A program made the position numbers and the translations under genes. A model generated the notes under the pieces. That model was not told the DNA's origin. It did no database searches and saw only the letters and a list, made by a program, of their open reading frames with translations. From an uncultured Actinomycetes bacterium (GTDB taxonomy: Bacteria > Actinomycetota > Thermoleophilia > Gaiellales > JAICJC01), in NCBI GenBank assembly GCA_963760755.1, contig CAVXEE010000003.1:525634-589633 (forward strand): a stretch of 64,000 nucleotides of DNA. Reading direction: 5' to 3'. This document shows positions 11,733 to 29,953 of this stretch, piece after piece. Within the stretch, counting starts at the first letter, position 1. The number at the start of each line of letters is the position of its first letter.

Positions 11733-11741
11733 CGCACCGTC

Positions 11742-11779
11742 ACCATACCCACAAGTTTTCCACTATGTCAATAGACATA
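11742..11779 (-). promoter_or_regulatory. sigma70-like promoter of the Stf0 gene (TTGACA-18-TATGGT) with overlapping palindrome TATGTC-AATA-GACATA
   Basis: The -35 is at 11771..11766 and the -10 at 11747..11742. ATG 11732 is 9 nt after the -10, so the mRNA has little or no leader. The palindrome is at 11764..11779. Confidence 0.5.
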
Positions 11780-13098: not shown

Positions 13099-13122
13099 CG
13101 GGCGGGAACCGTACCGGCCGGC

Positions 13123-13517: not shown

Positions 13518-14075
13518 CTAGCAGAACTCCTCGCGGTAGTCACCCGTGCGGCGGCCGAGCAGGCCGTCGGACGCGACCTCGTAGAAGCCCATCTCGCCCA
13601 GGGGAGGCGAGTAGACGTGCAGCGAGGTGGCGAGGCCGGGGCCGGTCTGGGAGACATCGTGGATGTGGGTCGCCCCGAACGAGAAGCTCGCTCCCGTGGG
13701 GTGGATCGCGGTCGGCGGAGGCGGGCCGCCCACGGCCAGCCGCCGCTCCAGCAGCGCGCCGCCGACCACGGACACGGCCCCGCGGCTGCGGTCGTGATCG
13801 TGGAATCCGGTGTCCTGCCGCTGCGACCAGCAGATCAGCCACACCTCCAGGTGCTCGTCCAGGTGCAGCCGCACGTACAGACGCTCGACCGGTGAATGGC
13901 GGACGTGCTGCCGCCACAGATCCGGCCGCGCGGCGAGCTCGCGGACGAGCTGCTCCAGCTCCTCCCGGGTCGACTCGCGGCCGCGGTCGTGCGCGTCCAT
14001 CCACACGTCCAGCGCGGCGTCCGCCGCGAACATCTCGCTGGCCCCCTGGGCCTGGTCTCGGGCAAACGTCGCCAT
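13518..14075 (-). CDS. cysteine dioxygenase type I-like cupin
   Basis: The last 185 codons of track ORF 13518..14978 are coding and the rest is out-of-frame overlap. ATG 14075 opens MATFARD. Cupin metal motif GFHDHDRSRGAVSVVGG ... ATHIHDV. Confidence 0.75.
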   Translation of the reverse strand: MATFARDQAQGASEMFAADAALDVWMDAHDRGRESTREELEQLVRELAARPDLWRQHVRHSPVERLYVRLHLDEHLEVWLICWSQRQDTGFHDHDRSRGAVSVVGGALLERRLAVGGPPPPTAIHPTGASFSFGATHIHDVSQTGPGLATSLHVYSPPLGEMGFYEVASDGLLGRRTGDYREEFC

Positions 14076-15145
14076 CACGCCACCTCCTTCACGGTCACCG
14101 TCACGCGGTGGACGGCGCTGACCGCGTAGCCACGCCGGTTCCAGGTCGGCTGCTCGGGCTGCACGGCGCCGCTCGCGTCGCGGGCGCGCACGGCGATCGT
14201 GTGCGTGCCCGGGGTCGCCTCCCACTCGTGCTCCCAGAACGTGCGGCCGTGGCGGCCGGTGCGGGCGACGATCGCCGCGCTCGTCCAGGGCCCGCCGTCG
14301 ACGCGTACGTCGACGCGGGTGACGGCGCCCCCGCCGCTCCACGCGATCCCGCGGACGCGGGCCGCCCCGGGGAGCAGAGCGGCCGCGTCGGCGGGGTCGG
14401 TCACGAGCGAGTGCACCGGCATCCGCTCCATCCGCGATCCCGGCCCGGGGTCGTCGAGGGTTGCGAACCGGTAGTCGATCGCCTGGAACGGGCCGTCGAA
14501 CTCGCCGGCCGACACGTGGACACGCTCGAGCCACTTGACCGAGTCGGTGGCGTACCAGCCGGGCACGATCGCGCGCACCGGGCCGCCGTGCTCGGGCGGG
14601 ATCGGGCGGCCGTTCATCTCGAATGCGAGCAGCGTGTCGGGGTCGAGCGCCTTGCGCAGCGGGAGCGCACGGCCGTAGCGGTGCCTGGTCGCGCTGCCCT
14701 CGAACGGGCCCCGGTCGGCGCCGAGCAGGACGACCTCGGCGGCGCGCCCGTCGACGCCCGCGCGCTGCAGGAGATCGCGCAGCGGGACTCCCGTCCAGGT
14801 GGCCTCGGACACGGCGCCCGGCCCCCACTGCAGTCCGGGCGTGGCGGGTACGAGCTCGGCGCGGCGATGGCCGGCGCACTCGAGCACGACGGCGGCCGTC
14901 CGCTGGGGCATGGTCACGAGCTCGGCCAGCGTGATGATCGCCGGAGTGCGCACGGCGCCGGCCAGGCGCAGGCGCCACTCGGCCGGATCGAGATCCGGGA
15001 CGGGGAAGTGCTCGCGGCGGAAGTGGGCCTGCGTGGGCATGTGCCGCTCGCCGAGCGCCGTGAGCGTCGCGGGGAGGTTGTGGACGCCGGGCGCGGGCGA
15101 TTGCCGAAGCGGCGCGGTGGCCGTAGGCTCGAGGTGGGGTTCCAC
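14075..15145 (-). CDS. sulfite oxidase-like molybdopterin oxidoreductase (catalytic + dimerisation domains)
   Basis: 356 aa. FRREHFPVP, VLECAGHRR (Mo-ligand Cys region), LAFEMNGRPIPPEHGGPVRAIVPGWY and SVKWL. The stop overlaps the CDO start by 1 nt (TGATG). GTG start at 15145; ATG 15040 is the alternative. Confidence 0.8.
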   Translation of the reverse strand: MEPHLEPTATAPLRQSPAPGVHNLPATLTALGERHMPTQAHFRREHFPVPDLDPAEWRLRLAGAVRTPAIITLAELVTMPQRTAAVVLECAGHRRAELVPATPGLQWGPGAVSEATWTGVPLRDLLQRAGVDGRAAEVVLLGADRGPFEGSATRHRYGRALPLRKALDPDTLLAFEMNGRPIPPEHGGPVRAIVPGWYATDSVKWLERVHVSAGEFDGPFQAIDYRFATLDDPGPGSRMERMPVHSLVTDPADAAALLPGAARVRGIAWSGGGAVTRVDVRVDGGPWTSAAIVARTGRHGRTFWEHEWEATPGTHTIAVRARDASGAVQPEQPTWNRRGYAVSAVHRVTVTVKEVA

Positions 15146-15181
15146 GGCTAGTTTCCTATAAAGTCGATTGCCATACTTGAG

Positions 15182-15210
15182 AATATAGGTGTGGTCCGGG
15201 AAGCCGTCAA
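15182..15210 (-). promoter_or_regulatory. sigma70-like promoter (TTGACG-17-TATATT) upstream of the sulfite oxidase-CDO operon
   Basis: The -35 is at 15210..15205 and the -10 at 15187..15182, about 37 nt upstream of GTG 15145. Confidence 0.45.
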
Positions 15211-15234
15211 CCTCGAACCGTCAAGAACGGGTGC

Positions 15235-16694: not shown

Positions 16695-17710
16695 GTCGCC
16701 GCCCCGGTCATCTCGGCCCTCGGCCCGTCGGCGGTGTGCGCCCCGTTCGGCGAGCGCCGGGCGGCGACCAGATCGCGCAGCGACGGAAGGATCCCGCGCG
16801 GCAGGAGCAGCATGACGACCAGGAAGATGGCCGCGTACGCGACCAGGTAGAGCTCGCTCGCGCCCTGGCTGAACGCCAGGTACTGCTGCGCGGGGACGAG
16901 GATGAGCGCGCCCAGCGTCGGCCCCCAGATCGTGCCGCGACCGCCGAGGAAGGCCATCAGCACGACCCCGATCGTGACGAGCGGGTCGACGGCGAACTGC
17001 GGGTAGATGAAGCCGATGTAGTACGCCCAGATGCCGCCGGCCATCGCCGTCAAGCCCGCGCTGAGCGCGAAGGCGACGAGCTTCGCGTAGGTCACCTGCA
17101 CGCCGAGGCCGCGCGAGCGGTCCTCGTCGTCGCGGATCGTGAAGAGCATCAGGCCGAGCTTGCCCGTTGCGACGTACCACGAGATCAGGACGGCAAGCAC
17201 GTACACGGCCACCATCGCGAGGTAGAACGGCCGCTCGAAGGTCGAGTTGGGGAAGGGCGGCAGCGGCATCACGAGGCCCTGGGCGCCGTTGGTGAGCGAG
17301 TGCAGGTTGAAGGCGAGCTGCTGGACGATGAAGAGCATCGAGATCGTGACGATGGCGAACGTCGCGGCCCGCGTGCGCACCGCCACCCACGCGAACGGCA
17401 GGGCGACGACGGCGACCCCGAACCCGACCGCCGGCAGCACGGCGAACGGGCGGTACCCACCGCCGATGCCGATGTGCTGGAACACGATCGCCTCGCCGTA
17501 GGCGCCCATCCCGAAGAAGGCCGCATTCCCGAGGGACAGGTAGCCCGAGAAGCCACCGAGGATGTTCCAGGCCGTCGCGAGCGCCGCGTACATCACCGTG
17601 AAGATGGCGATGTTCACGACCCACGGCTCGGTGAACAGGAACGGGAACGCCAGGAAGACGGCGGTGAAGCCGATGCCGCGGGCCAATCCGAGCCGGGTCA
17701 GCGGTCTCAC
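16691..17710 (-). CDS. livM: branched-chain amino acid-type ABC transporter permease
   Basis: Track ORF is 16691..17866. Hydrophobic LivM-like sequence starts at VRPLTRLGLARGIGFTAVFLAF (GTG 17710). Codons 17711-17866 have low third-position GC and a junk-like sequence, so the start is uncertain. Confidence 0.75.
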   Translation of the reverse strand: MRPLTRLGLARGIGFTAVFLAFPFLFTEPWVVNIAIFTVMYAALATAWNILGGFSGYLSLGNAAFFGMGAYGEAIVFQHIGIGGGYRPFAVLPAVGFGVAVVALPFAWVAVRTRAATFAIVTISMLFIVQQLAFNLHSLTNGAQGLVMPLPPFPNSTFERPFYLAMVAVYVLAVLISWYVATGKLGLMLFTIRDDEDRSRGLGVQVTYAKLVAFALSAGLTAMAGGIWAYYIGFIYPQFAVDPLVTIGVVLMAFLGGRGTIWGPTLGALILVPAQQYLAFSQGASELYLVAYAAIFLVVMLLLPRGILPSLRDLVAARRSPNGAHTADGPRAEMTGAAT

Positions 17711-17891
17711 AAGAGCACGTCCGCCCGTGGGATTCGTCGTGAGGCGCAGGGTGCGGTGGCTGCGGGAAGGATCGAAAGGCGAGCGGAGCGCAGACGTGGC
17801 CGGAGGCCACGATGAGCACCGCACGCCGCGTGGGACGCACCCGCAGACGGCGCGAACCAGCCGCAACAGAAGCCGACGGGCGGATGGGCTC

Positions 17892-18770
17892 TCACAGCCG
17901 GCCTCTCTCGCTCGTGCCGAAGAGCCCCTGCGGTCGCACGACGAGCACCGCGATCAGGATGACGAAGAACACCATCGACGACCACGTGGGCGAGATCGTC
18001 GCCGCCAGCACCGACTCGGACACGCCCATCACGAGCGCCGCCACGACCGCGCCGGTGAGGCTGCCCAGGCCGCCGAGCACGATGATCGTGAGCAGCCGCG
18101 AGATCAGGTCGTAGTGGCTGCCCGGGTTGAACGGCTCCACCATCCCGAACACCGCGCCCGCGGCCGTCGCCGTGGCGACGCTGATGCCGAAGCCGTAGGC
18201 CGACACGCGCTCGGCGTCGACGCCGAGGAGGCGGGCCGAGGTCGGGTTCTGCACCGTCGCCCTGATCGCCCGGCCGAGCCGCGTGCGGTGCAGGACGAGG
18301 TAGAGGGCCGCCAGGACCACGCCCGACACCCCGAACGCGGCCAGCCGCACGACCGCGATCCGGTAGGCGCCGATCGTCAGCGTGTCGTTCACGTAGCTCG
18401 GCAGGGTCGCCCGGTATGTGGTCGTGTAGATGACGCTGAGGATGCCCTCGAACGCGAGCGCGATCGCCCACGTGACGAGCAGCGACAGCTCCTCGCGCTC
18501 GTCTGAGCGCAGCGGCCGGAGGAAGACGTACTGGAGCACGACCCCGACCGCGAAGGCGGCCGGGGTCATGAGCAGGATCGAGACGAACGGGTCGATGTGG
18601 AAGTCGGTGAAGAGCGTGTAGCTGACGTACGCCCCGGCGACGATCATCGCCCCTTGGGCGACGTTGATCACCCGCATGACCCCGAAGGCCAGGGTCAGGC
18701 CGCTCGCCATCAGGGCATAGACGCCGCCGGTGAGCAGGCCGAGGATGACCGCCTGAATGACGAGGTGCAA
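17892..18770 (-). CDS. livH: branched-chain amino acid-type ABC transporter permease
   Basis: 292 aa. MHLVIQAVILGLLTGGVYALMASGLTLAFGVMRVINVAQG is a typical LivH N-terminus. Confidence 0.85.
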   Translation of the reverse strand: MHLVIQAVILGLLTGGVYALMASGLTLAFGVMRVINVAQGAMIVAGAYVSYTLFTDFHIDPFVSILLMTPAAFAVGVVLQYVFLRPLRSDEREELSLLVTWAIALAFEGILSVIYTTTYRATLPSYVNDTLTIGAYRIAVVRLAAFGVSGVVLAALYLVLHRTRLGRAIRATVQNPTSARLLGVDAERVSAYGFGISVATATAAGAVFGMVEPFNPGSHYDLISRLLTIIVLGGLGSLTGAVVAALVMGVSESVLAATISPTWSSMVFFVILIAVLVVRPQGLFGTSERGRL

Positions 18771-18795
18771 CCGACTTGCCTCGAGCTATGGGTGC

Positions 18796-20061
18796 CTAGC
18801 CGCCCCACGGCGGCTTGGGGATGACCGGGGCCGCCAGCGCCTGGGCGGGCGGGTACACCGGCAGGAGCTTGCCGCCGATCCACTCGGTCAGGATCGCACT
18901 GCCGGACGGCGCGCCGTACTTGTCCCAGCTGAGGTTGCCCTCGACCGTCGGCCACGATCCGGAGTGAAGCGACTTGATGATGGTGGCATTGTCGATCTTG
19001 CCGGTCTTCTTCGCCACCTCGGCCACGACCTCGCCGACGGCGTACGCCTCGGCCGAGCCGGAGTCGATGTTGGCCGGCGTGCCGCCGTACTTGGCGTTGT
19101 AGGCCTTGATGAACGCCTGGTTGCCGGGCGCCTTCGAGTTCGGGAACCAGTCGCCGCAGCTGAAGATGCCGTTGACGTTCTTGGCACCGACCTTGCTGGG
19201 GAACTCCACCGGCGAGTTGGCGCCGTTGGCCTGGAACAGGAACTTCGGGCTGAACCCGAGCTGTACCATCGCGTTCACCATCGAGTAGGCGTCGTCGGAC
19301 TGCGTACCTGCGAACACCATGTCCGGCTTGGCGGCGGCCATCTTCTCGACCACCGGCGTCAGGTCGGACATCTCGGGCGGGTAGACCTCCTTGAACACGG
19401 TCTTGATCCCCGCCGCCTCGAACTGGAGGCGCGCGCGCTCGGCGATCGGCGCCGAGAACGGGTCGTCGAGCTCGGGATATGCGGCCGTCTTCGGCCGCTG
19501 GCTCGCGGGCAGCGAGAGGATGTACTTGACGAACGGGTCGCCGCAGTTCACGACGGGCGCCGGCTGGACGAAGAACACGTTTCCGAGCTTCTCCTGGAAC
19601 ACCAGCGGGCCGCCGCCCGAGGGCTCGGGGAAGGCATAGTTGTACCGCGAAGCGACGCGTGCCGCCGGGGCCGTGAGAAGCGTCGAGAACGGCCCGAAGA
19701 CGAGGTCGACCTTGTCGCGCGTGATCAGGGTCTGGTAGTTCGTGACCACCTGGTTGGGGCTCGATGCGTCGTCGACGATCTTCAGCTGCACCTTGCGCCC
19801 GAGGATGCCCCCGTGGGCGTTCACCTGGTCGGCCCAGAGCTTGTACCCGAGCTCCGCCGCGTGGCCCGGATCCGAGAAGTCGCCGGAGAACGACAGCGAG
19901 ATGCCGATCACGAGCGGCTTCGTCGTGCCCGCGCTCGAGCCGCCCCCCGATCCCCCGCCGCACGCCGCAGTTGCCACGATGGCCAGTGCGGCCAGCGCCA
20001 GTGAGACCTTGTGTGATGCGACCCTCACGACGACTCCTCTCCCGTCGGGGAGGCGACGCAC
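18796..20061 (-). CDS. ABC transporter substrate-binding lipoprotein (LivK/Leu-Ile-Val-binding family fold)
   Basis: 421 aa. Lipobox LAIVATAAC-GGG, then PLVIGISLSFSG, GGILGRKVQL and DLVFGPFST. A start at a downstream GTG (near 20025) is possible. Confidence 0.8.
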   Translation of the reverse strand: MRRLPDGRGVVVRVASHKVSLALAALAIVATAACGGGSGGGSSAGTTKPLVIGISLSFSGDFSDPGHAAELGYKLWADQVNAHGGILGRKVQLKIVDDASSPNQVVTNYQTLITRDKVDLVFGPFSTLLTAPAARVASRYNYAFPEPSGGGPLVFQEKLGNVFFVQPAPVVNCGDPFVKYILSLPASQRPKTAAYPELDDPFSAPIAERARLQFEAAGIKTVFKEVYPPEMSDLTPVVEKMAAAKPDMVFAGTQSDDAYSMVNAMVQLGFSPKFLFQANGANSPVEFPSKVGAKNVNGIFSCGDWFPNSKAPGNQAFIKAYNAKYGGTPANIDSGSAEAYAVGEVVAEVAKKTGKIDNATIIKSLHSGSWPTVEGNLSWDKYGAPSGSAILTEWIGGKLLPVYPPAQALAAPVIPKPPWGG

Positions 20062-20090
20062 CGGGTGGTGACGCCGCCTGCAACACGTCT

Positions 20091-20104
20091 TGCAATCGGT
20101 TGCA
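20091..20104. promoter_or_regulatory. LacI-type operator O1 TGCAATCGGTTGCA
   Basis: 6 of 7 symmetric pairs. It starts 2 nt downstream of a TTGACA(20135..20130)-17-TAGGGT(20112..20107) promoter that reads into the liv-type operon. Confidence 0.6.
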
Positions 20105-20149
20105 TAACCCTAGTTCCTTGGCCCGTGCATGTCAACGGCATCCGCATGT

Positions 20150-21112
20150 CTACGCCCGCACGCCGCTTGCGGGGGTGCCGAGACCGTCTGCGACAGGGTC
20201 GGCGTCATCCGCCATCTCGAACCCGGACCGGCCCGCCTCGACCTCGAGCAGCGAGGCGAAGTCGACGCCCGTGTGGCCGGCGTCGATCGCCTCCTGCACC
20301 AGCCCGCGCACGAGCTGCATCGTCGGCAGAGGGACGCCCATCTCGGCGCCGGCGTCGAGGCCGAGGTCGAAGTCCTTGCGCAGGAGCTCGAGGGTGAACG
20401 TGGGCGTGTAGGTGCGGTTGACATAGGCGGGCGTCTTGTAGCGCGTGAAGGTGGAGCCCATCACGCTCGCGTTGAGGAACTCAAAGAACTCCCGCCGCGG
20501 CACTCCGCCCCGCTCCGCCAGCACCGCGATCTCGGCCAGCGACTCGGCGACGACGCCGAGGAACAGGTTGTGGCAGATCTTCACCAGCCGGGCGGCATCG
20601 CCCTCGCCGACGTAGGTCACGCCCTCGCCGAAGTGCTCCAGGTACGGCAGGGCGGCCTCGTAGGCGCCCCGCGGCCCGGACGCCACCACGGTCAGGCGGC
20701 CGGCCGCGACGACCTTCGGGTTGCCGCTCACCGGCGCTGCCAAAAGCGCCGTCCCGCGCGTGCTGGCGACGGCGCGCACGGCCGCCGACGCATCCGCCGA
20801 CACCGTCGAGGAGTCGACCAGCACGGCCGGCGCCGCGTCGGCCCGCGTGAGCACGCCGCCAGGCCCCGTCGTGACCGCCTCGAAGTCGTCCGAGCCGGCC
20901 ACCATCGTGAAGACGATGTCGCGGTCGGCGAGATCGGCCGGCGTGTCGACGATCGTGGCGCCGAGCCCGGCCAGGGGCTCCGCCTTCTCGCGGGTGCGGT
21001 TCCACACCGCCACGTCGCAGCCCGCGGCCAGCAGCCGCTCGGCCAGCCGGTACCCCATCCTGCCGGCGCCGATCCAGCCGACCGCCCCGGTTGCCGCCCT
21101 TCCGTCGTTCAC
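20150..21112 (-). CDS. beta-hydroxyacid dehydrogenase family oxidoreductase (3-hydroxyisobutyrate / 6-phosphogluconate dehydrogenase-like)
   Basis: Rossmann motif VGWIGAGRMGYRLAERLLAAG and the downstream PVSGNP. Start set at GTG 21112, preceded by GGGGAGGGGAG. The track ATG 21196 adds 28 unlikely codons. Confidence 0.75.
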   Translation of the reverse strand: MNDGRAATGAVGWIGAGRMGYRLAERLLAAGCDVAVWNRTREKAEPLAGLGATIVDTPADLADRDIVFTMVAGSDDFEAVTTGPGGVLTRADAAPAVLVDSSTVSADASAAVRAVASTRGTALLAAPVSGNPKVVAAGRLTVVASGPRGAYEAALPYLEHFGEGVTYVGEGDAARLVKICHNLFLGVVAESLAEIAVLAERGGVPRREFFEFLNASVMGSTFTRYKTPAYVNRTYTPTFTLELLRKDFDLGLDAGAEMGVPLPTMQLVRGLVQEAIDAGHTGVDFASLLEVEAGRSGFEMADDADPVADGLGTPASGVRA

Positions 21113-21150
21113 GTCCTCGATCTCCCCTCCCCGGACGCGGCCGGTGTCGC

Positions 21151-21164
21151 AGCAATCGATTGCA
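21151..21164. promoter_or_regulatory. LacI-type operator O2 AGCAATCGATTGCA (12-bp perfect core)
   Basis: Lies in the divergent region between the dehydrogenase (start 21112, minus) and the lacI-family gene (21229, plus). Confidence 0.6.
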
Positions 21165-21228
21165 ACTACTATATCGATGGCGCTCGCGGGCGTCAAACAC
21201 CCTGTTCCCGGCGAAAGTAGAGTGAGGC

Positions 21229-22326
21229 ATGTCGCAAAGGCCGGTCACGATGCGCGACGTCGCCCGTACGGCCGGGGTGCACCCCGGCACGGTCTCGCGC
21301 GTGCTCAACCCGCGCACACGCGCCCTCGTGAACCCGGCCACCGCCGACCGCGTCGAGCGCGTCGCCCGCGAGATGGGCTACTCGCTGAACCCGATCGCAC
21401 GCGGCCTGAAGACGCGGCGCACGTTCAGCGTCGGCGTCCTCATCCCCGATCTGACGAACCCGCTCTTCCCGCCGATCATCCGCGGCATCGAGCGCGTGCT
21501 CGACGCCGCCGGCTACACGGCGCTCGTCGCCTCGACCGACGGCGAGCCCGCCCGCGAGCGCCAGCGGCTCGAGGCGCTGATTGCGCGCCAGGTGGACGGC
21601 TTCGTGATCGCGACCGCCGTGCGCCACCACCCCGTGGTGGCCGAGGCGATCGCGTCCGACCTGGCCGTGGTGCTCGTGAACCGCACGATCGAGGGCGAGG
21701 GCGTCTTCGCGGTCGTCCCCGACGACCGCCGCGGCTCGGCGCTCGCGGTCGACCACCTGGCGACGCTCGGCCATGCCCGTATCGCGCACATCGCCGGCCC
21801 GCAGGCGACCACGACCGGCCTCCTGCGGTACCGCGGCTTCGTCGAGGCGATGGAGGACGCTGGCCTGCCGGTCGACCGCACCCTGATCGCGCAGGGGGAG
21901 GCGTTCACGATCGCCGCCGGCACGACGGCCGCGCGCGACCTCCTGGCCGCGGCCGACCCGCCGACCGGGATCGTGGCGGCAAACGACCTGCTCGCGCTCG
22001 GCGCCTACACCGCGCTGCACGAGGCCGGTCTGCGCTGTCCGCACGACGTCTCGGTGGTCGGCTTCAACGACATGCCCTTCGCCGATCGCTTCGCCCCGCC
22101 GCTCACGACCATCCACATCCCCCACGGCCAGATCGGCGCCCGCGCCGCCGAGCTCCTGCTCGAGCGGATCGAGGACCCGGCCGCGACCCCGCAGACGCTC
22201 GTGTTCGAGCCGACCGTCAGGGTGCGGGGGTCGACGGCGGCGCCGCCGCGGGCCCGGCGTCCGCGCCCGGGCGGTTCAGGTGCGACTGCGTCTCGCGGAT
22301 CCCCGGAAGCTGGCCCGACACGGTGA
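21229..22326 (+). CDS. LacI/GalR family transcriptional regulator
   Basis: 365 aa. N-terminal HTH VTMRDVARTAGVHPGTVSRVLN followed by a periplasmic-binding-fold sugar-binding-like domain. Confidence 0.9.
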   Translation: MSQRPVTMRDVARTAGVHPGTVSRVLNPRTRALVNPATADRVERVAREMGYSLNPIARGLKTRRTFSVGVLIPDLTNPLFPPIIRGIERVLDAAGYTALVASTDGEPARERQRLEALIARQVDGFVIATAVRHHPVVAEAIASDLAVVLVNRTIEGEGVFAVVPDDRRGSALAVDHLATLGHARIAHIAGPQATTTGLLRYRGFVEAMEDAGLPVDRTLIAQGEAFTIAAGTTAARDLLAAADPPTGIVAANDLLALGAYTALHEAGLRCPHDVSVVGFNDMPFADRFAPPLTTIHIPHGQIGARAAELLLERIEDPAATPQTLVFEPTVRVRGSTAAPPRARRPRPGGSGATASRGSPEAGPTR

Positions 22327-23557
22327 AGTAGTTGCTGCGGCCGGCCACGAGCAGATCCTCGGCCGGGAAGCGCGTGATCACCTCGCAGCCGGTGTCGGTG
22401 ACCACGAGCTGCTCCTCGATCCGGGCGGCGCCGAAGCCGTCGGACGTGGGCCAGAACGTCTCGAGCGCGAACACCATCCCCTTCTCGATCACCTCGGGGT
22501 GGTCGAGCGACACGAGCCGGCTGATGATCGGCTTCTCCCAGATCGAGAGACCCACGCCGTGCCCGAACTGGAGCGCGAAGGCGGCCTCCTCGTTCGGGAA
22601 GCCGAACTCCTGCGCGCGCGGCCACACGCTCGCCACCTCGCCGGTGGTGACGCCCGGCTTGACCAGGGCGATCGCACGGTCGAGCAGGTCGCGGCAGCGG
22701 CGGTAGGCGTCGACCTGCGCGCGCGAGGCGCTGCCGATCGCAAACGTGCGGTAGTAGCAGGTGCGGTAGCCGAGGTGGCTGTGCAGGATGTCGAAGTAGG
22801 CCGGGTCGCCGGGCCGCAGAACACGGTCGGAGTAGACGTGCGGGTGCGGGTTCGCGCGCTCGCCCGAGATGGCGTTCACGCCCTCGACGTGCTCGGAGCC
22901 GAGGTCGTAGAGCACCTTGCTGACGAGGCCGACGCACTCGTTCTCGCGCATGCCCGGCCGCATGCTGCGGTAGAGCTCGTCGTAGGCGGCGTCGACCATC
23001 ATGCACGCCGTGTCGAGCAGGGTGATCTCGTCGGCCGTCTTGATCACCCGCGCGGACTGCATCAGCTGCTGGCCGTCGACGACCTGCAGGCCGCGGGCCT
23101 GGAGGGCGAAGAGCACGGCCGGCTCGACCACGTCGACGCCGACGGGCTCTGCCTGCAGCCCGCGCTCCTCGAGCGCACGCCAGATCTTCTCGGCCACGTC
23201 CTCCGCGCGTCCGCTCTCGGGCGACATCGCCCCGCGCATCGTCGAGATGCCGGCGGGCGTGCGCCCCTCGAGCCACGGGCAATAGAGCTCGTGGTGGCGG
23301 GCGGCCGACCCGAAGTCCCACACGATCGGCTCGGCGCCGCGGGCAAGCAGCGAGAAGCGGGCCAGCTTGTCCATCGCCCAGGTGCCGATGTGCGTGGCGG
23401 TGACGTAGCGGATGTTCACCATGTCGAAGCAGAGCAGTGAGCCCATCTCGGAGCGCTCGAGCAGGCCGCCGATCCGCTCGAGTCGCTGCCGCCGCAGCCG
23501 GTCGACGTCGACCCGCTGCTCCCAGTCGACCGCGTTCAGCCCGAACGTCTTGCCCAT
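22217..23557 (-). CDS. M24 (pita-bread fold) hydrolase, creatinase / Xaa-Pro dipeptidase / ectoine-hydrolase-like
   Basis: 446 aa. GDPAYFDILHSHLGYRTCYYRTF, FGHGVGLSIWE and VFALETF ... ARIEEQLVVT (metal ligands of M24). Confidence 0.75.
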   Translation of the reverse strand: MGKTFGLNAVDWEQRVDVDRLRRQRLERIGGLLERSEMGSLLCFDMVNIRYVTATHIGTWAMDKLARFSLLARGAEPIVWDFGSAARHHELYCPWLEGRTPAGISTMRGAMSPESGRAEDVAEKIWRALEERGLQAEPVGVDVVEPAVLFALQARGLQVVDGQQLMQSARVIKTADEITLLDTACMMVDAAYDELYRSMRPGMRENECVGLVSKVLYDLGSEHVEGVNAISGERANPHPHVYSDRVLRPGDPAYFDILHSHLGYRTCYYRTFAIGSASRAQVDAYRRCRDLLDRAIALVKPGVTTGEVASVWPRAQEFGFPNEEAAFALQFGHGVGLSIWEKPIISRLVSLDHPEVIEKGMVFALETFWPTSDGFGAARIEEQLVVTDTGCEVITRFPAEDLLVAGRSNYFTVSGQLPGIRETQSHLNRPGADAGPAAAPPSTPAP

Positions 23558-23573
23558 CGTGCCACCTCTCCAG

Positions 23574-24551
23574 TCAGGCCGGCTCGCCGACGCCGAGCCG
23601 CTCGCGCACGCTGCGGGCGATCGCGTCGGGGCCCGGCAGGTATGCGTCCTCGAGCGGGGGGCTGTAGGGAATGGGCGTGTCCGGTGTCGTCAGCGTCCAC
23701 ACGTCGTCGAGGTCGCCGAGCGCGCGCTCGGCCACGGCCCCCACGAGGCCGCTCGCCCAGCCGCCGAGCTCGGGCCCCTCCTCGACGGCGACCATCCGGC
23801 TCGTCTTGCGCACCGACGCGACGACCGTGTCGTGGTCGAGCGGGCGCAGGCTGCGCAGATCGATCACCTCGGCGTCGACGCCGGCGGCCGCGAGCGTCTC
23901 GGCGGCCGCGAGCGCGTCGTGCACGCCCCGCATCACCGAGACGATCGTGACGTCGGTTCCCGGCCGCACCACCCGCGCGGCGCCGATCGGCACGGGCGCG
24001 TCGCCCACATCGCCGGTCACCGGGTAGAGGCGCTTGTGCTCGAGCACGATCACCGGATTGTCGTCGCGGACCGCGGCCTCGATCAGGCCGCGGGCGTCGT
24101 CGGGGAACGCCGGGGCGACGATCTTCAGGCCGGAGACGCCCTGCAGCCACGTCGCCGGCGTCTGCGAGTGGATCGCGCCGAACCGGCCGCCGCCGCCGAC
24201 CGCGCAGCGCACGACGAGCGGCACGGGCGCCTGCTCGTTGGACATGTACCAGTACTTGGCGGACTGGTTGACGAGGCTGTCCATCGCCAGGGCCATGAAG
24301 TCGCCGAACATGATCTCGACCACCGGGCGCAGGCCGGTGACGGCGCTGCCGAAGGCCGCGCCGGCGAGCGCGAGCTCCGAGATCGGCGTGTCGAACACGC
24401 GCTCGTCGCCGAACTCCTCGGCCAGGCCGGGGGTGGCCTTGAAGACGCCGCCGGCGGCCGCGATGTCCTCTCCGAAGAGCACGACGCGCTCGTCGCGACG
24501 CATCTCGGCCGCCAGCGCGTCGCGCACGGCGGTGCGCATATCGGTGCTCAT
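23574..24551 (-). CDS. thiamine-diphosphate-dependent 2-oxoacid/acetoin dehydrogenase E1 component, beta subunit
   Basis: C-terminal 325 codons of track ORF 23574..25361. MSTDMRTAVRDALAAEM, VFDTPISELALAG and the transketolase-like pyrimidine and C-terminal domains. ATG 24551 overlaps the E1-alpha stop (ATGA). Confidence 0.85.
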   Translation of the reverse strand: MSTDMRTAVRDALAAEMRRDERVVLFGEDIAAAGGVFKATPGLAEEFGDERVFDTPISELALAGAAFGSAVTGLRPVVEIMFGDFMALAMDSLVNQSAKYWYMSNEQAPVPLVVRCAVGGGGRFGAIHSQTPATWLQGVSGLKIVAPAFPDDARGLIEAAVRDDNPVIVLEHKRLYPVTGDVGDAPVPIGAARVVRPGTDVTIVSVMRGVHDALAAAETLAAAGVDAEVIDLRSLRPLDHDTVVASVRKTSRMVAVEEGPELGGWASGLVGAVAERALGDLDDVWTLTTPDTPIPYSPPLEDAYLPGPDAIARSVRERLGVGEPA

Positions 24552-25534
24552 CCGGCGTACTCCGCGGCGGCGACGGCCGGATCGGGGTACGGGTCGCCGA
24601 CCGCGGCCGCGACACCCGCCTCGACCTCGGCGCGCACGGCGGCCTCGCAGGCCGTGATCTCCTCGAGCGCGACCCCGGCCTCGGAGAGCCGGGCGGCGGC
24701 AACGGTGAGCGGGTCGCGCACGAGCCACTCGTCCAGCTCGCCCTCGGGGCGGTAGACGCCCGGGTCGGTCTTGGAGTGGCCCAGGTGGCGGTAGGTGAGG
24801 CACTCGAGGAACGCGGGCCCGTCGCCGCGGCGGGCGTGGTCGACCGCCCGCTCGGCCACCGCGTGCACCAGCTCGACGTCGTTGCCGTCGACCTTCTCGG
24901 CCGGGATGTCGTAGGCGGCGGCGCGGGCGCGGATGTCGCCGCCGGCCGTGACCGCTGCCATCGGCGTGAACTCGCCGTAGAGGTTGTTCTCGCACACGAA
25001 CAGCACCGGCAGGCGGCGCACACGGGCGAAGTTCAGGCACTCGTGGAAGTAGCCGTGGTTGGTCGCGCCGTCGCCGAAGAAGGCGACCGCGACGCCGCCG
25101 GTGCGCTGCAGCGAGAGCCCGGCGCCGGTGGCGGCGGCGATGCTCCCGCCGACGATTCCGAAGCAGCCGATCAGGCCGTGGTCGAGGTCGATCACGTTCA
25201 TCGACCCGGCCCGGCCACCGCAGACACCGGTGCTGCGCCCCATCAGCTCGGCCGCGAGCGCGCGCGGCTCGGTGCCCATCGCGAGCGCCGCGCCATGGCC
25301 GCGGTAGGTCGCGGCCACGCGGTCGCCGGGCGCGAGCGCGGCACAGACGCCGACGGCGCACGCCTCCTGGCCCGTGTACAGGTGCACCGTGCCGTGCACC
25401 TCGCCGCGCAGGAACAGGCGCTGCATCTCGTCCTCGAACGCGCGGATGCGCACCATCTGCCCGTACAGGTCGAGCGGGCTGCCCCGCTCTGCGGCCGCCA
25501 CGGCGGGGCTCGCCCCACCCGAAGCTTCACTCAC
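24548..25534 (-). CDS. thiamine-diphosphate-dependent dehydrogenase E1 component, alpha subunit
   Basis: YRGHG and the TPP motif GDGATNHGYFHECLNFA ... ENNLYG. Start set at GTG 25534, preceded by GGAAGGAGA. The track ATG 25573 would lie inside the operator. Confidence 0.85.
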   Translation of the reverse strand: MSEASGGASPAVAAAERGSPLDLYGQMVRIRAFEDEMQRLFLRGEVHGTVHLYTGQEACAVGVCAALAPGDRVAATYRGHGAALAMGTEPRALAAELMGRSTGVCGGRAGSMNVIDLDHGLIGCFGIVGGSIAAATGAGLSLQRTGGVAVAFFGDGATNHGYFHECLNFARVRRLPVLFVCENNLYGEFTPMAAVTAGGDIRARAAAYDIPAEKVDGNDVELVHAVAERAVDHARRGDGPAFLECLTYRHLGHSKTDPGVYRPEGELDEWLVRDPLTVAAARLSEAGVALEEITACEAAVRAEVEAGVAAAVGDPYPDPAVAAAEYAG

Positions 25535-25568
25535 CCGGTCTCCTTCCGCGGTTGCGGCCTGACGTCCA

Positions 25569-25582
25569 TGCAAACGATTGCA
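25569..25582. promoter_or_regulatory. LacI-type operator O3 TGCAAACGATTGCA
   Basis: 6 of 7 symmetric pairs. It lies 35 nt upstream of the E1-alpha GTG (25534, minus), in the divergent region towards the lyase-like gene. Confidence 0.6.
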
Positions 25583-25746
25583 AAGCGCTCCCGGGTTGTC
25601 AAGCCGCCAACCGCAACGCGACTCCGGTTGCGGCCGGCGCGAGCACCGCGAAAGCGCGTGCGTGTGCGATCAAGAACTAGATTGCGGCCATCGCCGCGCC
25701 GCCGAACACGCTGCTCGTCTCCGGGCACACGCTGACACCGGCCGAC

Positions 25747-27231
25747 GTGGCCGACGTCGCGCTGCGCGGCCGCCCGGTGCAGATCGCCCCGGCGGCGCGC
25801 GGGCGCATCGAGGCTGCTCGGGGCATGCTCGAGCGCGCGCTGGCCGAGGGCCGCCCCGTCTACGGCCTGACGACGGGACTCGGCGCGCGTGTGAGCGAGC
25901 CGGTGGCGCCCGAGCACGCGGCCGCGCAGGCCGCCCGGATCGTGCGCGGCCGGGCGACGGCCGTCGGCGAGCCGCTGCCCACAGCCGCCGTGCGGGCGAC
26001 GCTGCTCGCCCGCCTGAACGGACTCTGCGCGGGCGGGGCCGGGGTCTCGCCGGCGGTCGCCGACACGCTGGCCGCCATGCTCAACGCCGGCGTGCACCCG
26101 GTCGTGCCGCGGACAGGCTCGATCGGCGCCGGCGACCTGTGCCTGCTCGCCCACGTCGCGCTCGTGGTGCTCGGCGAGGGCGAGGCCGATGTGGGCGGGA
26201 CGCGCCTGGCGGGCGCCGAGGCGCTGCGGCGGGCGGGGATCGCGCTCCCCGTCGTCGGCGCCGGCGACGGCCTGGCGCTCTGCAACGCCTCGTCGGTCTC
26301 GGCCGGGGCGGCGGCGCTCGCAGTCGATGCGGCCGACCACCTGCTCGACGCCGTCCAGATCGCGGCGGCGCTCTCGATGGAGGGCTTCCGCGCGGCGGCG
26401 ACGCCGATCCACGCCGACGTGGCCGGCGCGCATCCGGCCCCGGGACAGGAGTGGGAGGCAGCCGGCCTGCGCGAGCTCCTGCGCGGCGGCAGCCTGCTCG
26501 ACGCGGGCGCCTCGCGGCGGCTGCAGGATCCGCTCAGCTTCCGCTGTGCGAGCCACGTGCACGGCGCCCTGCGCTGGGCGCTCGACGTGCTCGCGACGGC
26601 CGTGCTCGGCGCCCTGAACGGCGCGGGCGATAACCCGCTCGTGCTCGGCACGGGGGGTGTCGTGTCGACCGGCAACTTCCACACGCCGGCGCTCGCGCTC
26701 GCACTCGACACGGCCGCGATCGCGGTCGCCCAGACCGCCGGCCCCGCCGCCGAGCGGCCGGCGCGACTGGCCACCGAGCGCCTGAGCGACCTGCCCGCCA
26801 ACCTCACCCGGGGCGGCGAGGGCCGCTCGGGCATCGCGCCGCTCTTGAAGACTGCGCAGGCGATCGCGGTCGAGATCCGCCACCTCGCCGCACCGCTCGC
26901 CATCGACCCCCGCTTCGGGGCCGACGGTGTCGAGGACGACTCGACGAACGCCGCCGCGGGGGCGCTGCGGCTGCAGGCGCAGCTCGGGCTGCTCGAGCGC
27001 CTGATCGCGCTCGAGCTCCTGTGCGCGGCGCAGGCGGTCGACCTGGCGGCGCCCGATCGGCTCGGCAACGGCACGGCGGCAGCGCAGGCCTGCGTACGCG
27101 AGCTGGTGGCGCCGCTCGACGACGACCGGCCGCTCGGCGCCGAGGTCGAGCGGGTGGCGCGCGAGCTCGTGGCGTCGGGCGTCCTGCGCGAGCGCGTCCG
27201 CGAGGCGGTGCGGTGGCCGGACTCGAGCTGA
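25747..27231 (+). CDS. histidine/phenylalanine ammonia-lyase-family protein lacking the canonical Ala-Ser-Gly (MIO) triad
   Basis: 494 aa. VYGLTTGLG, GSIGAGDLCLLAH (HAL has GSVGASGDLAPLA), QDPLSFRC, GDNPLV and TGNFH. Family-like N-terminal residues (TLLVSGHTLTPADV) continue upstream to 25681 with no canonical start. Confidence 0.75.
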   Translation: MADVALRGRPVQIAPAARGRIEAARGMLERALAEGRPVYGLTTGLGARVSEPVAPEHAAAQAARIVRGRATAVGEPLPTAAVRATLLARLNGLCAGGAGVSPAVADTLAAMLNAGVHPVVPRTGSIGAGDLCLLAHVALVVLGEGEADVGGTRLAGAEALRRAGIALPVVGAGDGLALCNASSVSAGAAALAVDAADHLLDAVQIAAALSMEGFRAAATPIHADVAGAHPAPGQEWEAAGLRELLRGGSLLDAGASRRLQDPLSFRCASHVHGALRWALDVLATAVLGALNGAGDNPLVLGTGGVVSTGNFHTPALALALDTAAIAVAQTAGPAAERPARLATERLSDLPANLTRGGEGRSGIAPLLKTAQAIAVEIRHLAAPLAIDPRFGADGVEDDSTNAAAGALRLQAQLGLLERLIALELLCAAQAVDLAAPDRLGNGTAAAQACVRELVAPLDDDRPLGAEVERVARELVASGVLRERVREAVRWPDSS

Positions 27232-28217
27232 CCTATCTGAGCGGGGCAGACATCGACCGCCTGGCGCTCGGCGCCGACGAGATCCTGGCGGCCGTGTCAG
27301 ACGTGCTCGCCGCGCACGGCCGCGGCGAGACCGTGATCGAGCCGCGCGTGCACCTGTTCCCCGGCGGCGGTGCCGACGGGCACTTCAACGTGCTCCGCGG
27401 CGCGCTGCCGCGTGCGGGCGTCGCCGGCGTGAAGGTCGTCGGCGACTACGTCGGAAACGGCGCGCGCGGGCTGCCGTCGGAGCTCGCGCTGCTGACGCTC
27501 CACGACACGGCCACCGGCGCCCCGACGGCGATCCTCGACGCGACCGCCATCACCGCGATGCGCACGGGCGCCGTGACCGCGATCGGCGCCCGCCACCTCG
27601 CCCGGCGCTCGAGCCGCGTGCTCGCCCATATCGGCAGCCGCGGGACGGCCGAGTGGAACGTGCGCCTGCTCTGCGCCGTCCTGCCCGGGATCGAGGAGGT
27701 GCGCATCCACTCGAGCACGCACGAGAACCGCACCGCGCTCGCCGGGCGCCTTGCCGCCGAGCTCGGCCCGCGCGTGCACGCCGTGGACGGCTGGGAGGAG
27801 TGCGTGCGCGGCGCCGACGTCGTGGTCGAGGCCACCCGCCTGGTGACACCCGAGCCGCTGCTGCGCACCGAGTGGATCGCCCCGGGCGCGCTCGTCGTCC
27901 CCTACGGCACGGTGAGCGCCGTCGCCCTCGACCTGACCGACGTGATGGACAAGGTGGTCGTCGACGACTGGGGCCAGGCGCGGTCGGGCCCGCTCGGCGC
28001 GCTGCGGGCGCATGTCGACTCCGGCCGCCTGTCGCAGGACACCCTGCACGCCGAGCTCGGCCAGATCGTGGCCGGCCTGCGGCCGGGCCGCGAGACCGAC
28101 TCCGAGCGCATCCTGCTGTGGCACCGCGGGCTCAGCCTGACCGACATCGCGCTCGGCCGGGCGATGCTCGCGCGGGCGCAGGAGCGGGGCATGGGGACGC
28201 GGCTGCCCTACCGCTGA
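27213..28217 (+). CDS. ornithine cyclodeaminase / mu-crystallin family protein
   Basis: Part of track ORF 27021..28217. GTG 27213 overlaps the lyase gene by 19 nt. AITAMRTGAVTAIGARHLA and LAHIGSRGTAEW (Rossmann). Confidence 0.8.
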   Translation: MAGLELTYLSGADIDRLALGADEILAAVSDVLAAHGRGETVIEPRVHLFPGGGADGHFNVLRGALPRAGVAGVKVVGDYVGNGARGLPSELALLTLHDTATGAPTAILDATAITAMRTGAVTAIGARHLARRSSRVLAHIGSRGTAEWNVRLLCAVLPGIEEVRIHSSTHENRTALAGRLAAELGPRVHAVDGWEECVRGADVVVEATRLVTPEPLLRTEWIAPGALVVPYGTVSAVALDLTDVMDKVVVDDWGQARSGPLGALRAHVDSGRLSQDTLHAELGQIVAGLRPGRETDSERILLWHRGLSLTDIALGRAMLARAQERGMGTRLPYR

Positions 28218-28271: not shown

Positions 28272-29795
28272 CTAGAAGGTCGCCCGGGCCGCGGGCGAGA
28301 AGCCCGACGAGTTGCCGCCCTTGTTCGTGCGAACCTGGAACTTGTACACCCCGGTGCCTGCGCTGGGCGTGTACGTGTAGGTCAGGCTCGTCAGGCCGGT
28401 GCCGGCCGGCGCCGGGTTGAACGTGGTGCTACCAGGAAGCGCGACCTGGACGTCCAGCGTGACCCCGGCGGGCACGGAGGTCGCGATCGTGACGGTGATC
28501 GCCGTGTGGGCGCCGTTCACCGTCGCAGAAGGCGTCACCTTGATCTGCGGGGTGCCGCCGAACGCCGTGCCGACGGTCGAGTTGTAACCGAACGTCCCCG
28601 CCGTGGTGAAGGTGAACGGGAACGAAGTCCCCGGCGCCTGGGAGCCGGAGTCGAACAGGTTCATGCCGCTCGTGTCGGTGATGCTGTGCGCATCGCCGGT
28701 CGCGAACACCCACCGCACCGTGGTCGGCTTCTTCGTCGTACCGGTCGCGAGCGGGATGCCCTGCTGCGACGGCACGGGGCCGCCGTCGTGCACGATCACG
28801 TAGCTCGAGTGGCCCTGCAGAGACGTGAGCCGGCCGATCTTGTTGCCGACGTTCTCGCTGAACCAGGTGTTGCCGTCGGCCCCGGTCACGATGCCGCCCG
28901 GGGACGAGCCCTTCGTCGTAATGCCGAACGACGTCACGGCGCCGGCCGTGGTGACACGGGCGATCGCGTTGGCGCCCTGCTCGGTGACCCAGAGGTTGCC
29001 GTCGGGGCCGCTCGTGATGCCGGTCGGCTTGCCGGGGACCGAGATCTGGGTCACGACCGGGGTTGCGGCGGTCGTGATCTTCGCGACGTGGTTGATGCCG
29101 GGCTCGGCGACCCAGATGTTGCCGTCGGGGCCGCTCGTGATCCGCGCGGGCGATGCCGAGCCGGCAAGGGCGACCCGAGTCTGGACGCCTGCGGGGGTGA
29201 CCCGGAAGACGTCGTTCTTCGAGGTGCCGCTGACCCACAGGTTGCCGTCGGGGCCTGCAGCGATCCGGGTCGGACCGGTGCCCGCGGGCAGCTGCGCCAG
29301 CAGGGTGAACGCATGCGTGTGCACGTCGAACTTGACGACCCTGCTCTGCGCATTCGACACGAAGTAGAGGAAGCCGCCGGGCCCGGCCGTGATGCCGCGC
29401 GGGCTGGTGCCGTCGGCCGCCGGGATTGCGAACGACGTGAACGTCGGCCCGCCGACAACGCGGCCGATGCGGTTGGATGCCGACTCGGTGAACCAGACGG
29501 CGCCGTCGGATCCGGTCGTGATCCCGACCGGGTTGCTCTTGGCCGTCGGGATCGTCGCGAGGGTCACCGCGCCCGTCTTGTTGATGTGGCCGAGCTTGTT
29601 GCTGCCGGCGTTGACGAACCACACATTGCCGTCGCCGCCGACCGTCAGGTCGCCGGGCTGGTTGTTTGTGCCTGGAATCTTGAAATCCACGATCGCGTGC
29701 GTTGCAGCCCCCGCTGGGCCTGCCGAGGCGACCGCGGCCACCGCGAGCAACACGATCGACGCCAGCGCTTTGCCGGCGTGTCGACGATGCGACAT
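28272..29795 (-). CDS. secreted beta-propeller protein with Vgb (virginiamycin B lyase)-like repeats plus a C-terminal beta-rich (cupredoxin/Ig-like) region
   Basis: ATG 29795 is preceded by AGGAGGGAAGG, with signal peptide MSHRRHAGKALASIVLLAVAAVASAGPAGA. Seven or more repeats of G(S/P)DG(N/A)(V/L/I)W(F/V). Confidence 0.7.
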   Translation of the reverse strand: MSHRRHAGKALASIVLLAVAAVASAGPAGAATHAIVDFKIPGTNNQPGDLTVGGDGNVWFVNAGSNKLGHINKTGAVTLATIPTAKSNPVGITTGSDGAVWFTESASNRIGRVVGGPTFTSFAIPAADGTSPRGITAGPGGFLYFVSNAQSRVVKFDVHTHAFTLLAQLPAGTGPTRIAAGPDGNLWVSGTSKNDVFRVTPAGVQTRVALAGSASPARITSGPDGNIWVAEPGINHVAKITTAATPVVTQISVPGKPTGITSGPDGNLWVTEQGANAIARVTTAGAVTSFGITTKGSSPGGIVTGADGNTWFSENVGNKIGRLTSLQGHSSYVIVHDGGPVPSQQGIPLATGTTKKPTTVRWVFATGDAHSITDTSGMNLFDSGSQAPGTSFPFTFTTAGTFGYNSTVGTAFGGTPQIKVTPSATVNGAHTAITVTIATSVPAGVTLDVQVALPGSTTFNPAPAGTGLTSLTYTYTPSAGTGVYKFQVRTNKGGNSSGFSPAARATF

Positions 29796-29953
29796 GTGCC
29801 CTTCCCTCCTGTATGTGCTCGACCCGTCCAATCGCGCCGAGAATGTCCACCTCAAGGGTACGTCCGACTTGACGCAGGGCAACCCCCTGCCAACGAACCC
29901 TTAACAGACGCGGTGGCCCGCCCGCGCCGGTGGTGTTAGCCTGGATAGCCGAG

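Follow-up and report, generated by a model that had tools for sequence, protein, structure and literature searches.

Several proteins of the PF00221 family, among them ergothionase (PDB 6s7j), Swoo_3913 and SO_3299, are trimethylammonia-lyases that work without the 4-methylideneimidazole-5-one (MIO) cofactor, and loss of the Ala-Ser-Gly (ASG) triad that forms it is a hallmark of this group (bioRxiv 10.64898/2026.04.22.720169; bioRxiv 10.1101/2025.08.13.670108). In these enzymes a Tyr serves as the base, and the carboxylate is held by Gln, Arg and Asn, the imidazole by a His at N-tau and a Glu at N-pi; Lys384 of ergothionase binds the ergothioneine thiolate and is replaced by Asn or Gln in the lyases of sulfur-free histidine betaines (bioRxiv 10.64898/2026.04.22.720169; bioRxiv 10.1101/2025.08.13.670108). 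The present analysis concerns a PF00221 lyase gene, and the ornithine cyclodeaminase (OCD)-family gene that overlaps it, in a 64,000-nucleotide stretch of DNA from an uncultured Actinomycetes bacterium (Thermoleophilia; Gaiellales; JAICJC01), namely positions 525,634 to 589,633 of the forward strand of contig CAVXEE010000003.1 (assembly GCA_963760755.1). This whole stretch is called the window below, and coordinates are window positions unless another locus is named.

The window lyase has no capacity to form the MIO cofactor. It belongs to a clade defined by an Arg at the usual His position together with the ergothionase Lys (Arg/Lys or R/K type), which is a widespread new variant among the known MIO-less lyases. 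The explanation that we favour, tentatively, is that it is an active C-N lyase from the ergothionase lineage, which needs no MIO and cleaves a histidine betaine derived from ergothioneine.

The shortened loop and the active site

The features of the gene are as follows; residues were mapped in the numbering of Pseudomonas putida histidine ammonia-lyase (HAL) from HMMER and MAFFT alignments, and invariance refers to an alignment of 25 clade members that are 59-84% identical.

25690..27231, + strand: lyase A, R/K-type PF00221 protein without MIO; first canonical start GTG at 25747 (494 residues), probable true start ATC at 25690 (513 residues)
26116..26136, + strand: loop G-S-I-G-A-G-D in place of the MIO-forming GS(V/I)GASGD (codons and HMMER alignment)
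25861..25863, + strand: Tyr39, equivalent to HAL Tyr53, the catalytic base taking the beta-proton; invariant
25951..25953, + strand: Arg69 at the position of HAL His83, which is that of the ergothionase His binding imidazole N-tau; defines the R/K subclade; G68-R69 invariant
26533..26535, + strand: Leu263 at the position of HAL Tyr280 (alignment)
26848..26850, + strand: Lys368, equivalent to the thiolate/sulfonate-binding Lys384 of Treponema denticola ergothionase and to HAL Val386; invariant
26932..26934, + strand: Glu396, equivalent to HAL Glu414, which binds imidazole N-pi; invariant

The open reading frame 25747..27231 (+) gave a full-length match to the Pfam model PF00221 Lyase_aromatic (E 3.6e-120, residues 3-452). 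Its codons GGC TCG ATC GGC GCC GGC GAC at 26116-26136 encode G124 S125 I126 G127 A128 G129 D130, and HMMER alignment of the segment prtgsiga.gdlcllahv with PLKGSVGAsGDLAPLAHM of P. putida HAL places a one-residue gap exactly at Ser143. In this alignment to P. putida HAL no ASG, TSG or CSG triad was found elsewhere in the loop, in line with an earlier note on this DNA, which had read the Ser as missing and the triad as absent. The family blocks which that note listed as kept (YGLTTGLG, QDPLSFRC, GDNPLV and TGNFH) are all present in the translation, as are the two blocks it had described as altered, CNASS and GVEDDST. The protein reached 337 bits on the NCBIfam hutH model, whose cut-off is 539, and fell far under the cut-offs of the NCBIfam equivalogs PAL, TAM and PAM. 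An AlphaFold2 model (mean predicted local distance difference test score 83.8) had the PF00221 fold, with Foldseek TM-scores of 0.86-0.89 to HAL (6v6h, 1gk2) and to ergothionase (6s7j) alike, a comparison that does not discriminate between the two enzymes.

The earlier note had proposed searching for orthologues that share the deletion, and had allowed that an intact triad might lie elsewhere or that the codon might be missing through a sequencing error. Among the 120 nearest homologues in the database (59-100% identity), the motif was located in 109, and in every one of these the loop is shortened alike, to GS[VIL]G-x-x-D[LI]; 412 related loci were found in GTDB species genomes. With the same short loop in this many homologues and loci, and with the alignment described above, sequencing error was excluded as the cause of the deletion, and so was a displaced triad. 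The two loop residues vary across the homologues (AA, AG, SG, AS, PA or TA), and the Ser is therefore not under selection. The loss of MIO is not unprecedented, since the absence of ASG is the published hallmark of the trimethylammonia-lyases.

The remainder of the active site is largely conserved. HAL Ser82-His83 corresponds to G68-R69 and the HAL Ala-Ser-Gly to A-G, while HAL Gln277, Arg283, Asn313 and Phe329 are matched by Q260, R266, N296 and F311. Y39, R69, Q260, R266, N296, F311, K368 and E396 are invariant across the 25 aligned members, and in 79 representative clusters the same holds for the catalytic Tyr, the three carboxylate-binding residues and the Glu. The combination expected of a trimethylammonia-lyase, no ASG with the Tyr and the Gln/Arg/Asn set retained, is thus found here in Y39, Q260, R266 and N296. 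HMMER and MAFFT both aligned LLKTAQ of the lyase to IQKTFT of ergothionase, which makes K368 the counterpart of Lys384. The Tyr280 of MIO enzymes is absent; the window lyase has Leu263 there, and nearly every protein with the short loop has Leu, Ile or Val. The pairing of Arg69, a pure hydrogen-bond donor where an acceptor His is usual, with Lys368 suggests an anionic sulfur group at the imidazole C2 of the substrate.

The gene very probably begins upstream of the GTG at 25747, at a non-canonical ATC at 25690 (region 25681-25746). The in-frame upstream peptide AAPPNTLLVSGHTLTPAD is conserved, with a match to the N-terminal strand of HAL, and the ATC codon is kept in 13 of 14 Gaiellales orthologues, with ATG in the remaining one (locus L013). 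In-frame stops lie one to four codons 5' of the ATC in several genomes; in the window this is a TAG at 25678.

For placement within the family, 150 best representatives were taken from a library of 1.8 billion proteins clustered at 50% identity. The short loop was present in 111 of them, all of which fell into one clade together with T. denticola ergothionase (TdETL; FastTree support 1.0). About 70 of the 150 combined the short loop with Arg83, Lys386 and Leu or Ile at 280, about 12 had the short loop with His83 and Lys386 as in TdETL, and about 35 were true MIO histidases. The ergothionase-like His/Lys group was sister to a monophyletic Arg/Lys clade (79 representatives, FastTree support 1.0), which holds the window lyase.

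Ergothionase of T. denticola (6s7j/6s7q) was the best PDB sequence match of the window lyase (E 9e-61), from the sister clade and with the same fold. The two share a loop of the same length without Ser (SIGEGD in ergothionase, SIGAGD here), an identical QDPLSFRC block with Tyr280 changed to Leu, the catalytic Tyr, the Glu, and Lys384 as K368. They differ in overall sequence (about 29% identity by tblastn), in the ring-binding His, which is Arg in the window lyase, and in gene partners, ergothionase being accompanied by thiourocanate hydratase, hydantoinase and carbamoylase genes and the R/K lyases by an OCD-family gene and canonical HutU. Swoo_3913 of Shewanella woodyi and SO_3299 of S. oneidensis, the latter acting on N-pi-methyl histidine betaine, are likewise MIO-less PF00221 proteins; they release trimethylamine, make urocanate-type products and are linked to urocanate-using enzymes. 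In contrast to the Arg/Lys window lyase, both keep His83 and have Asn or Gln for the Lys, and they are periplasmic and coupled to urocanate reductases of anaerobic respiration, whereas the window lyase has no predicted signal peptide and has its links with an OCD enzyme and the Hut pathway. HutH of P. putida (1b8f/1gkm) has the same fold (TM 0.88), with equivalents of its Tyr53, Gln277, Arg283, Asn313, Phe329 and Glu414 in the window lyase, which nevertheless lacks Ala-Ser-Gly and MIO, has Leu for Tyr280 and Arg for His83, and scores 337 against 539 on the hutH model. The window lyase is not to be filed as a histidase; strictly it is neither an ergothionase nor a histidine-betaine lyase, because the His typical of both is missing.

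Some side observations (P0146, P0153 and P0170; L095:6631-9560) concern the His/Lys type. Three of its representatives (P0146, P0153 and P0170) are 680-696 residues long; P0153 has an N-terminal cyclic-nucleotide (cNMP)-binding domain and its gene adjoins CoA-transferase and enoyl-CoA hydratase genes. In Sporosarcina jiandibaonis the partners of a His/Lys lyase are a UbiD-family decarboxylase, cyclases, an OpuA-type transporter, an amidohydrolase and an M20 peptidase.

Gene partners of the lyase

The following genes accompany lyase A in the window or its relatives in other genomes.

27213..28217, + strand: OCD/mu-crystallin family NAD(P) oxidoreductase (PF02423, E 7e-49); GTG start with GAGG upstream; 19-nt overlap with the lyase
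13521..14075, - strand: ergothioneine-dioxygenase-like gene with CDO_I fold (PF05995); context gene
14075..15220, - strand: molybdopterin sulfite-dehydrogenase-like gene, related to SorA/SoxC/SorT (Pfam Oxidored_molyb and Mo-co_dimer)
L069:11505-12473 and L090:10392-11318, + strand: protein X, 308-322 residues

The 19-nt overlap between lyase and OCD gene that the earlier note had reported is real: the GTG at 27213, preceded by GAGG, lies within the lyase gene, whose TGA ends at 27231. The OCD protein stayed under the cut-off of every NCBIfam equivalog, and therefore no specific function is assigned to it. Its best PDB matches (about 1e-34) were pyrroline-2-carboxylate reductase (6t3e), alanine dehydrogenase (1omo) and SbnB (4m54). 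The features of the family are present, with the carboxylate-binding K74 (in VKVV) and R117 (in RTGA) conserved with respect to 6t3e, and the Rossmann motif GSRGTA at residues 141-146.

In a census of 80 loci from GTDB species genomes, which was based on tblastn since a crude gene caller using third-position GC content (GC3) under-called OCD genes, an OCD gene lay directly downstream of the lyase in 53 loci, directly upstream in four and nearby in six; it thus adjoined the lyase in 57 of the 80, in most cases with an overlap. The junction was a 4-nt overlap in 29 loci and the 19-nt overlap in the group to which the window belongs. The pairing extends to distant Arg/Lys members in Methylobacterium terricola (46% identity) and on the Martelella plasmid pMM593 (42%), and also to relatives that are 38%, 49% and, in Streptomyces chartreusis, 53-54% identical. 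No OCD gene was present in the two His/Lys-type contexts examined.

Two side observations touch on this pairing. On the same contig as locus L023, L009:8001-16423 holds a 60%-identical Arg/Lys-type lyase with the loop GSVGPADL and no OCD partner, followed by P450, Amidohydro_2 and nonribosomal peptide synthetase condensation/adenylation genes, a context that suggests biosynthetic rather than catabolic use. Directly downstream of the OCD gene in the window (28272-29882, - strand) is a gene for a beta-propeller protein of the Vgb-lyase-like kind, which starts with a hydrophobic segment and is probably secreted. All Gaiellales relatives share this gene order, which is not seen elsewhere and is probably lineage synteny only.

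Canonical hutU, hutI and hutF genes adjoin R/K lyases in Solirubrobacterales, in Alphaproteobacteria and in L093, the locus of the 38%-identical relative. The neighbouring urocanases scored 890-986 bits on the hutU model (cut-off 375) and failed the cut-offs for thiourocanate hydratase (655-691 against 930) and for the S-methyl-thiourocanate enzyme (679-731 against 880). The coupling to thiourocanate hydratase and hydantoin-type enzymes seen with ergothionase is accordingly absent, and a thiourocanate-hydratase route was ruled out by these NCBIfam cut-offs. The Martelella and Methylobacterium operons include HutC as well as OpuAC-type and PhnD/SsuA-like binding proteins with permeases. The only support for a release of trimethylamine from an N-alpha-trimethyl histidine derivative, and that indirect, comes from the betaine-type transporters and hut neighbours.

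The hut-like clusters of Solirubrobacterales hold second and third MIO-less PF00221 paralogues, lyase B and lyase C (L004:8225-9745, L006:6422-7957, L007:6440-7969 and L008:6428-7957, all - strand; L008:16361-17521, + strand). Lyase B has the loop GSLGTGDL, keeps His83 and Tyr280, is basal in the MIO-less clade and adjoins a DHA2-type MFS transporter. In lyase C, which comes after hutF, the loop reads NGGAGE. No MIO-bearing hutH was found within 8-10 kb of the lyase in these Solirubrobacterales clusters.

In seven of eight alphaproteobacterial loci an MttB-family methyltransferase gene is divergent from the lyase; it is a non-equivalog, scoring 333 bits where the cut-off is 525. The lyase start of Virgifigura deserti is overlapped by a gene for a DAO-family FAD oxidase, at the place usually taken by OCD. 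A membrane FA_desaturase-family gene recurs beside these genes in L034, L075 and L093 (coordinates for these MttB, DAO and FA_desaturase observations: L034:6817-8343, - strand; L034:8547-9884, + strand; L034:2902-3849, + strand; L075:7257-9788; L093:7278-8198).

The dioxygenase homologue in the window had its best PDB matches in 8qfl/8qfp (E 2.8e-34, 45% identity), ordinary CDOs reaching only about 1e-5; the title of 8qfp is ergothioneine dioxygenase from Thermocatellispora tengchongensis. Its single-sequence AlphaFold2 model was poor (pLDDT 41). The adjacent sulfite-dehydrogenase-like gene scored 206 bits on the NCBIfam SorA model, under the cut-off. Farther along the same strand are a sulfatase gene (11788-13122) and a Stf0 sulfotransferase gene (10896-11762, - strand). 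Dioxygenase homologues stand beside the lyase in three actinobacterial lineages, Gaiellales, Solirubrobacteraceae (L069) and Streptomyces (L090). The order is lyase, protein X, dioxygenase homologue in L069, and OCD, lyase, protein X, dioxygenase homologue in L090. Protein X is 63% identical between the Solirubrobacteraceae metagenome-assembled genome and Streptomyces chartreusis and had no match in Pfam or NCBIfam; it has an HxH start (VDVHQHL) and faint similarity to metal-dependent decarboxylases of the ACMSD/IDCase type, and it is a candidate ergothioneine-sulfinate desulfinase.

In 2024 Nalivaiko, Vasseur and Seebeck reportedly described an oxidative route in which a dioxygenase and a metal-dependent desulfinase convert ergothioneine through the sulfinate to hercynine and SO2. 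To our knowledge hercynine is the end point of this published pathway, in which neither a lyase nor an OCD-family enzyme takes part. The window resembles the actinobacterial system (8qfl-8qfr) in having a 45%-identical dioxygenase homologue beside a sulfite-dehydrogenase-like gene, and differs from it in the lyase-OCD pair, which would be the missing continuation of the pathway or a branch of it. Literature searches for ETDO, for a link of ergothioneine to ornithine cyclodeaminase and for one of MttB to hercynine returned nothing.

Only some Gaiellales genomes have a block of about 10 kb (15200-25600 in the window) between the genes of the molybdenum enzyme and the lyase. It encodes a Liv-type ABC transporter, a 3-hydroxyisobutyrate-dehydrogenase-like protein, LacI, an M24 DddP/creatinase-like hydrolase and E1-beta/E1-alpha subunits without E2. 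The LacI operator palindrome TGCAAnCGnTTGCA occurs three times (20091-20104, 21151-21164 and 25569-25582; at least three copies in 0 of 100 shuffles), and the three operators are confined to block-bearing genomes. In island-free relatives (L002, L003, L015, L016, L018 and L020) the molybdenum enzyme gene is directly divergent from the lyase, and the dioxygenase-molybdenum enzyme pair is thus directly divergent from the lyase-OCD pair. Since block and operators are absent from close relatives, where the molybdenum enzyme abuts the lyase, the block is an insertion outside the lyase system. A general link between the lyase and the Liv-type ABC genes or the E1-alpha/E1-beta/M24 operon divergent from it was rejected on account of this restricted occurrence; an M24/creatinase-like gene recurs once elsewhere, in L094.

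Candidate substrates and reactions

The earlier note had left a choice between MIO-independent chemistry on the lyase fold and a binding protein, and of these the former is the most likely. That the protein is a non-catalytic remnant or ligand binder is extremely improbable: such a role might allow for the lost cofactor and for the changes in several substrate blocks, but neither the Tyr nor the carboxylate triad nor the Glu varies, even in divergent members and in the 79 representative clusters, different phyla share the coupling in one operon with an enzyme gene, and the nearest relatives are active enzymes. The invariant active-site residues therefore favour an enzyme over a binding protein. 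Under the preferred reading, that of a C-N lyase for a histidine betaine derived from ergothioneine, we picture the identity of the substrate and its leaving group, the sequence of steps and the part of OCD as follows. Tyr39 would take the beta-proton of a substrate whose carboxylate is held by Gln260, Arg266 and Asn296, and the quaternary trimethylammonium group would leave without the MIO electrophile. The substrate would be a histidine betaine carrying a C2 thiolate or, more likely, a sulfinate or sulfonate produced by the homologue of ergothioneine dioxygenase that is encoded nearby. The OCD/mu-crystallin enzyme, whose translation is coupled to that of the lyase, would act in the same pathway, and the carbon skeleton would pass as urocanate to the ordinary Hut enzymes.

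With canonical HutU downstream, and with minimal operons of transporter, lyase and OCD gene, the OCD enzyme is the obvious candidate for removing the C2 group. It is possible, if rather doubtful, that the R/K lyase and the OCD enzyme form an undescribed two-enzyme route from C2-sulfur histidine betaines to urocanate, in which OCD delivers hydride to the imidazole C2 and expels sulfite or sulfide. Hydride addition at C2 followed by loss of sulfite, which is wholly inferred, would be chemically attractive because the carboxylate-binding Lys and Arg are kept, the nearest solved relative reduces pyrroline-2-carboxylate, and a 2-sulfo- or 2-sulfino-imidazole is similar to that compound in shape and charge.

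Several points weigh against the preferred reading. Of the imidazole-binding pair of the trimethylammonia-lyases only E396 is present, the His being replaced by the invariant Arg69, and this Arg could simply bond the unprotonated N-tau of plain hercynine. Arg/Lys members are named only 'histidine ammonia-lyase' in database sources, and no characterised Arg/Lys-type member was found in the literature and protein-family collections searched. Dioxygenase neighbours occur in few lineages only, and in the window the LacI-regulated island of about 10 kb separates the dioxygenase gene from the lyase. We know of no ergothioneine route that includes an OCD-family enzyme. The MttB gene of Alphaproteobacteria and the DAO gene of Virgifigura, finally, fit demethylation of an N-methylated histidine at least as well.

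Among the alternatives, a plain hercynine (N-alpha-trimethylhistidine) trimethylammonia-lyase is a strong one, although we still regard it as unlikely. Such an enzyme would yield urocanate and trimethylamine, Arg69 binding the unprotonated N-tau and OCD being peripheral; hercynine would be imported directly or arise from ergothioneine desulfurised by a dioxygenase and a desulfinase, a pair that is said to yield hercynine in work by Nalivaiko and Seebeck of 2024. The conserved downstream enzyme, a canonical HutU and not a thiourocanate hydratase, speaks for this explanation, as do the betaine-type transporters and HutC and the order of lyase, decarboxylase-like protein X and dioxygenase in L069 and L090. 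However, characterised hercynine lyases keep His83 and replace the Lys by Asn or Gln, the opposite of the R/K clade with its invariant Arg69 and Lys368; an oxidoreductase would be needless in the minimal operons of OCD gene, transporter and lyase; and the separate His-containing MIO-less paralogue beside a transporter in Solirubrobacterales could itself be the hercynine enzyme.

A lyase for a non-quaternary N-substituted histidine (N-alpha-dimethyl, monomethyl or opine-like N-alkyl), served by MttB as betaine demethylase and by OCD or DAO as oxidase of the secondary or tertiary amine, is improbable. It would account for the divergent MttB-family gene in seven of the eight alphaproteobacterial loci, for the DAO-family oxidase overlapping the lyase start at the OCD position in V. 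deserti, and for the presence among the closest solved relatives of OCD of SbnB, which cleaves an N-alkylated glutamate. Yet without MIO a secondary or tertiary amine in its protonated form leaves poorly, and there is no precedent for its loss; the Lys368/Arg69 pair and the dioxygenase neighbours are left unexplained, and no MttB gene adjoins the lyase in actinobacterial clusters. More improbable still is a MIO-independent substitute for histidase, in which lyase and OCD together turn L-histidine into urocanate where hut clusters lack canonical HutH. The clusters of L093, L086 and Solirubrobacterales, with only MIO-less PF00221 genes beside hutU, hutI and hutF within 8-10 kb, would suit this idea, but it has no evident chemical route, the betaine transporters, MttB and dioxygenase point to modified histidines, and the genomes concerned may have a canonical hutH at another place.

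Ergothioneine and hercynine abound among the metabolites of fungi and actinobacteria, but their consumption by soil bacteria is only partly known. The Arg/Lys clade is large: it takes up about 79 of the 150 nearest family representatives in the library clustered at 50% and has 412 loci in GTDB species genomes. Its members are uniformly misnamed 'histidine ammonia-lyase', and identification of the substrate would correct the annotation of hut-like clusters. Carriers in culture, Virgifigura deserti SYSU D60014, Methylobacterium terricola, Martelella mediterranea DSM 17316 and Streptomyces chartreusis NBC_00851, allow direct testing. Knowledge of the substrate would probably connect the recently found oxygen-dependent degradation of ergothioneine to central metabolism, would add a microbial source of trimethylamine and might reveal new chemistry in the OCD/mu-crystallin family. 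If true, C2 desulfuration by OCD would be a new reaction type for that family, and the two-enzyme route would supply the connection that is still missing, in Actinobacteria and Alphaproteobacteria of the soil, from the oxidation of ergothioneine to the Hut pathway. The lyase itself probably helps soil bacteria to degrade histidine betaines of the ergothioneine type.

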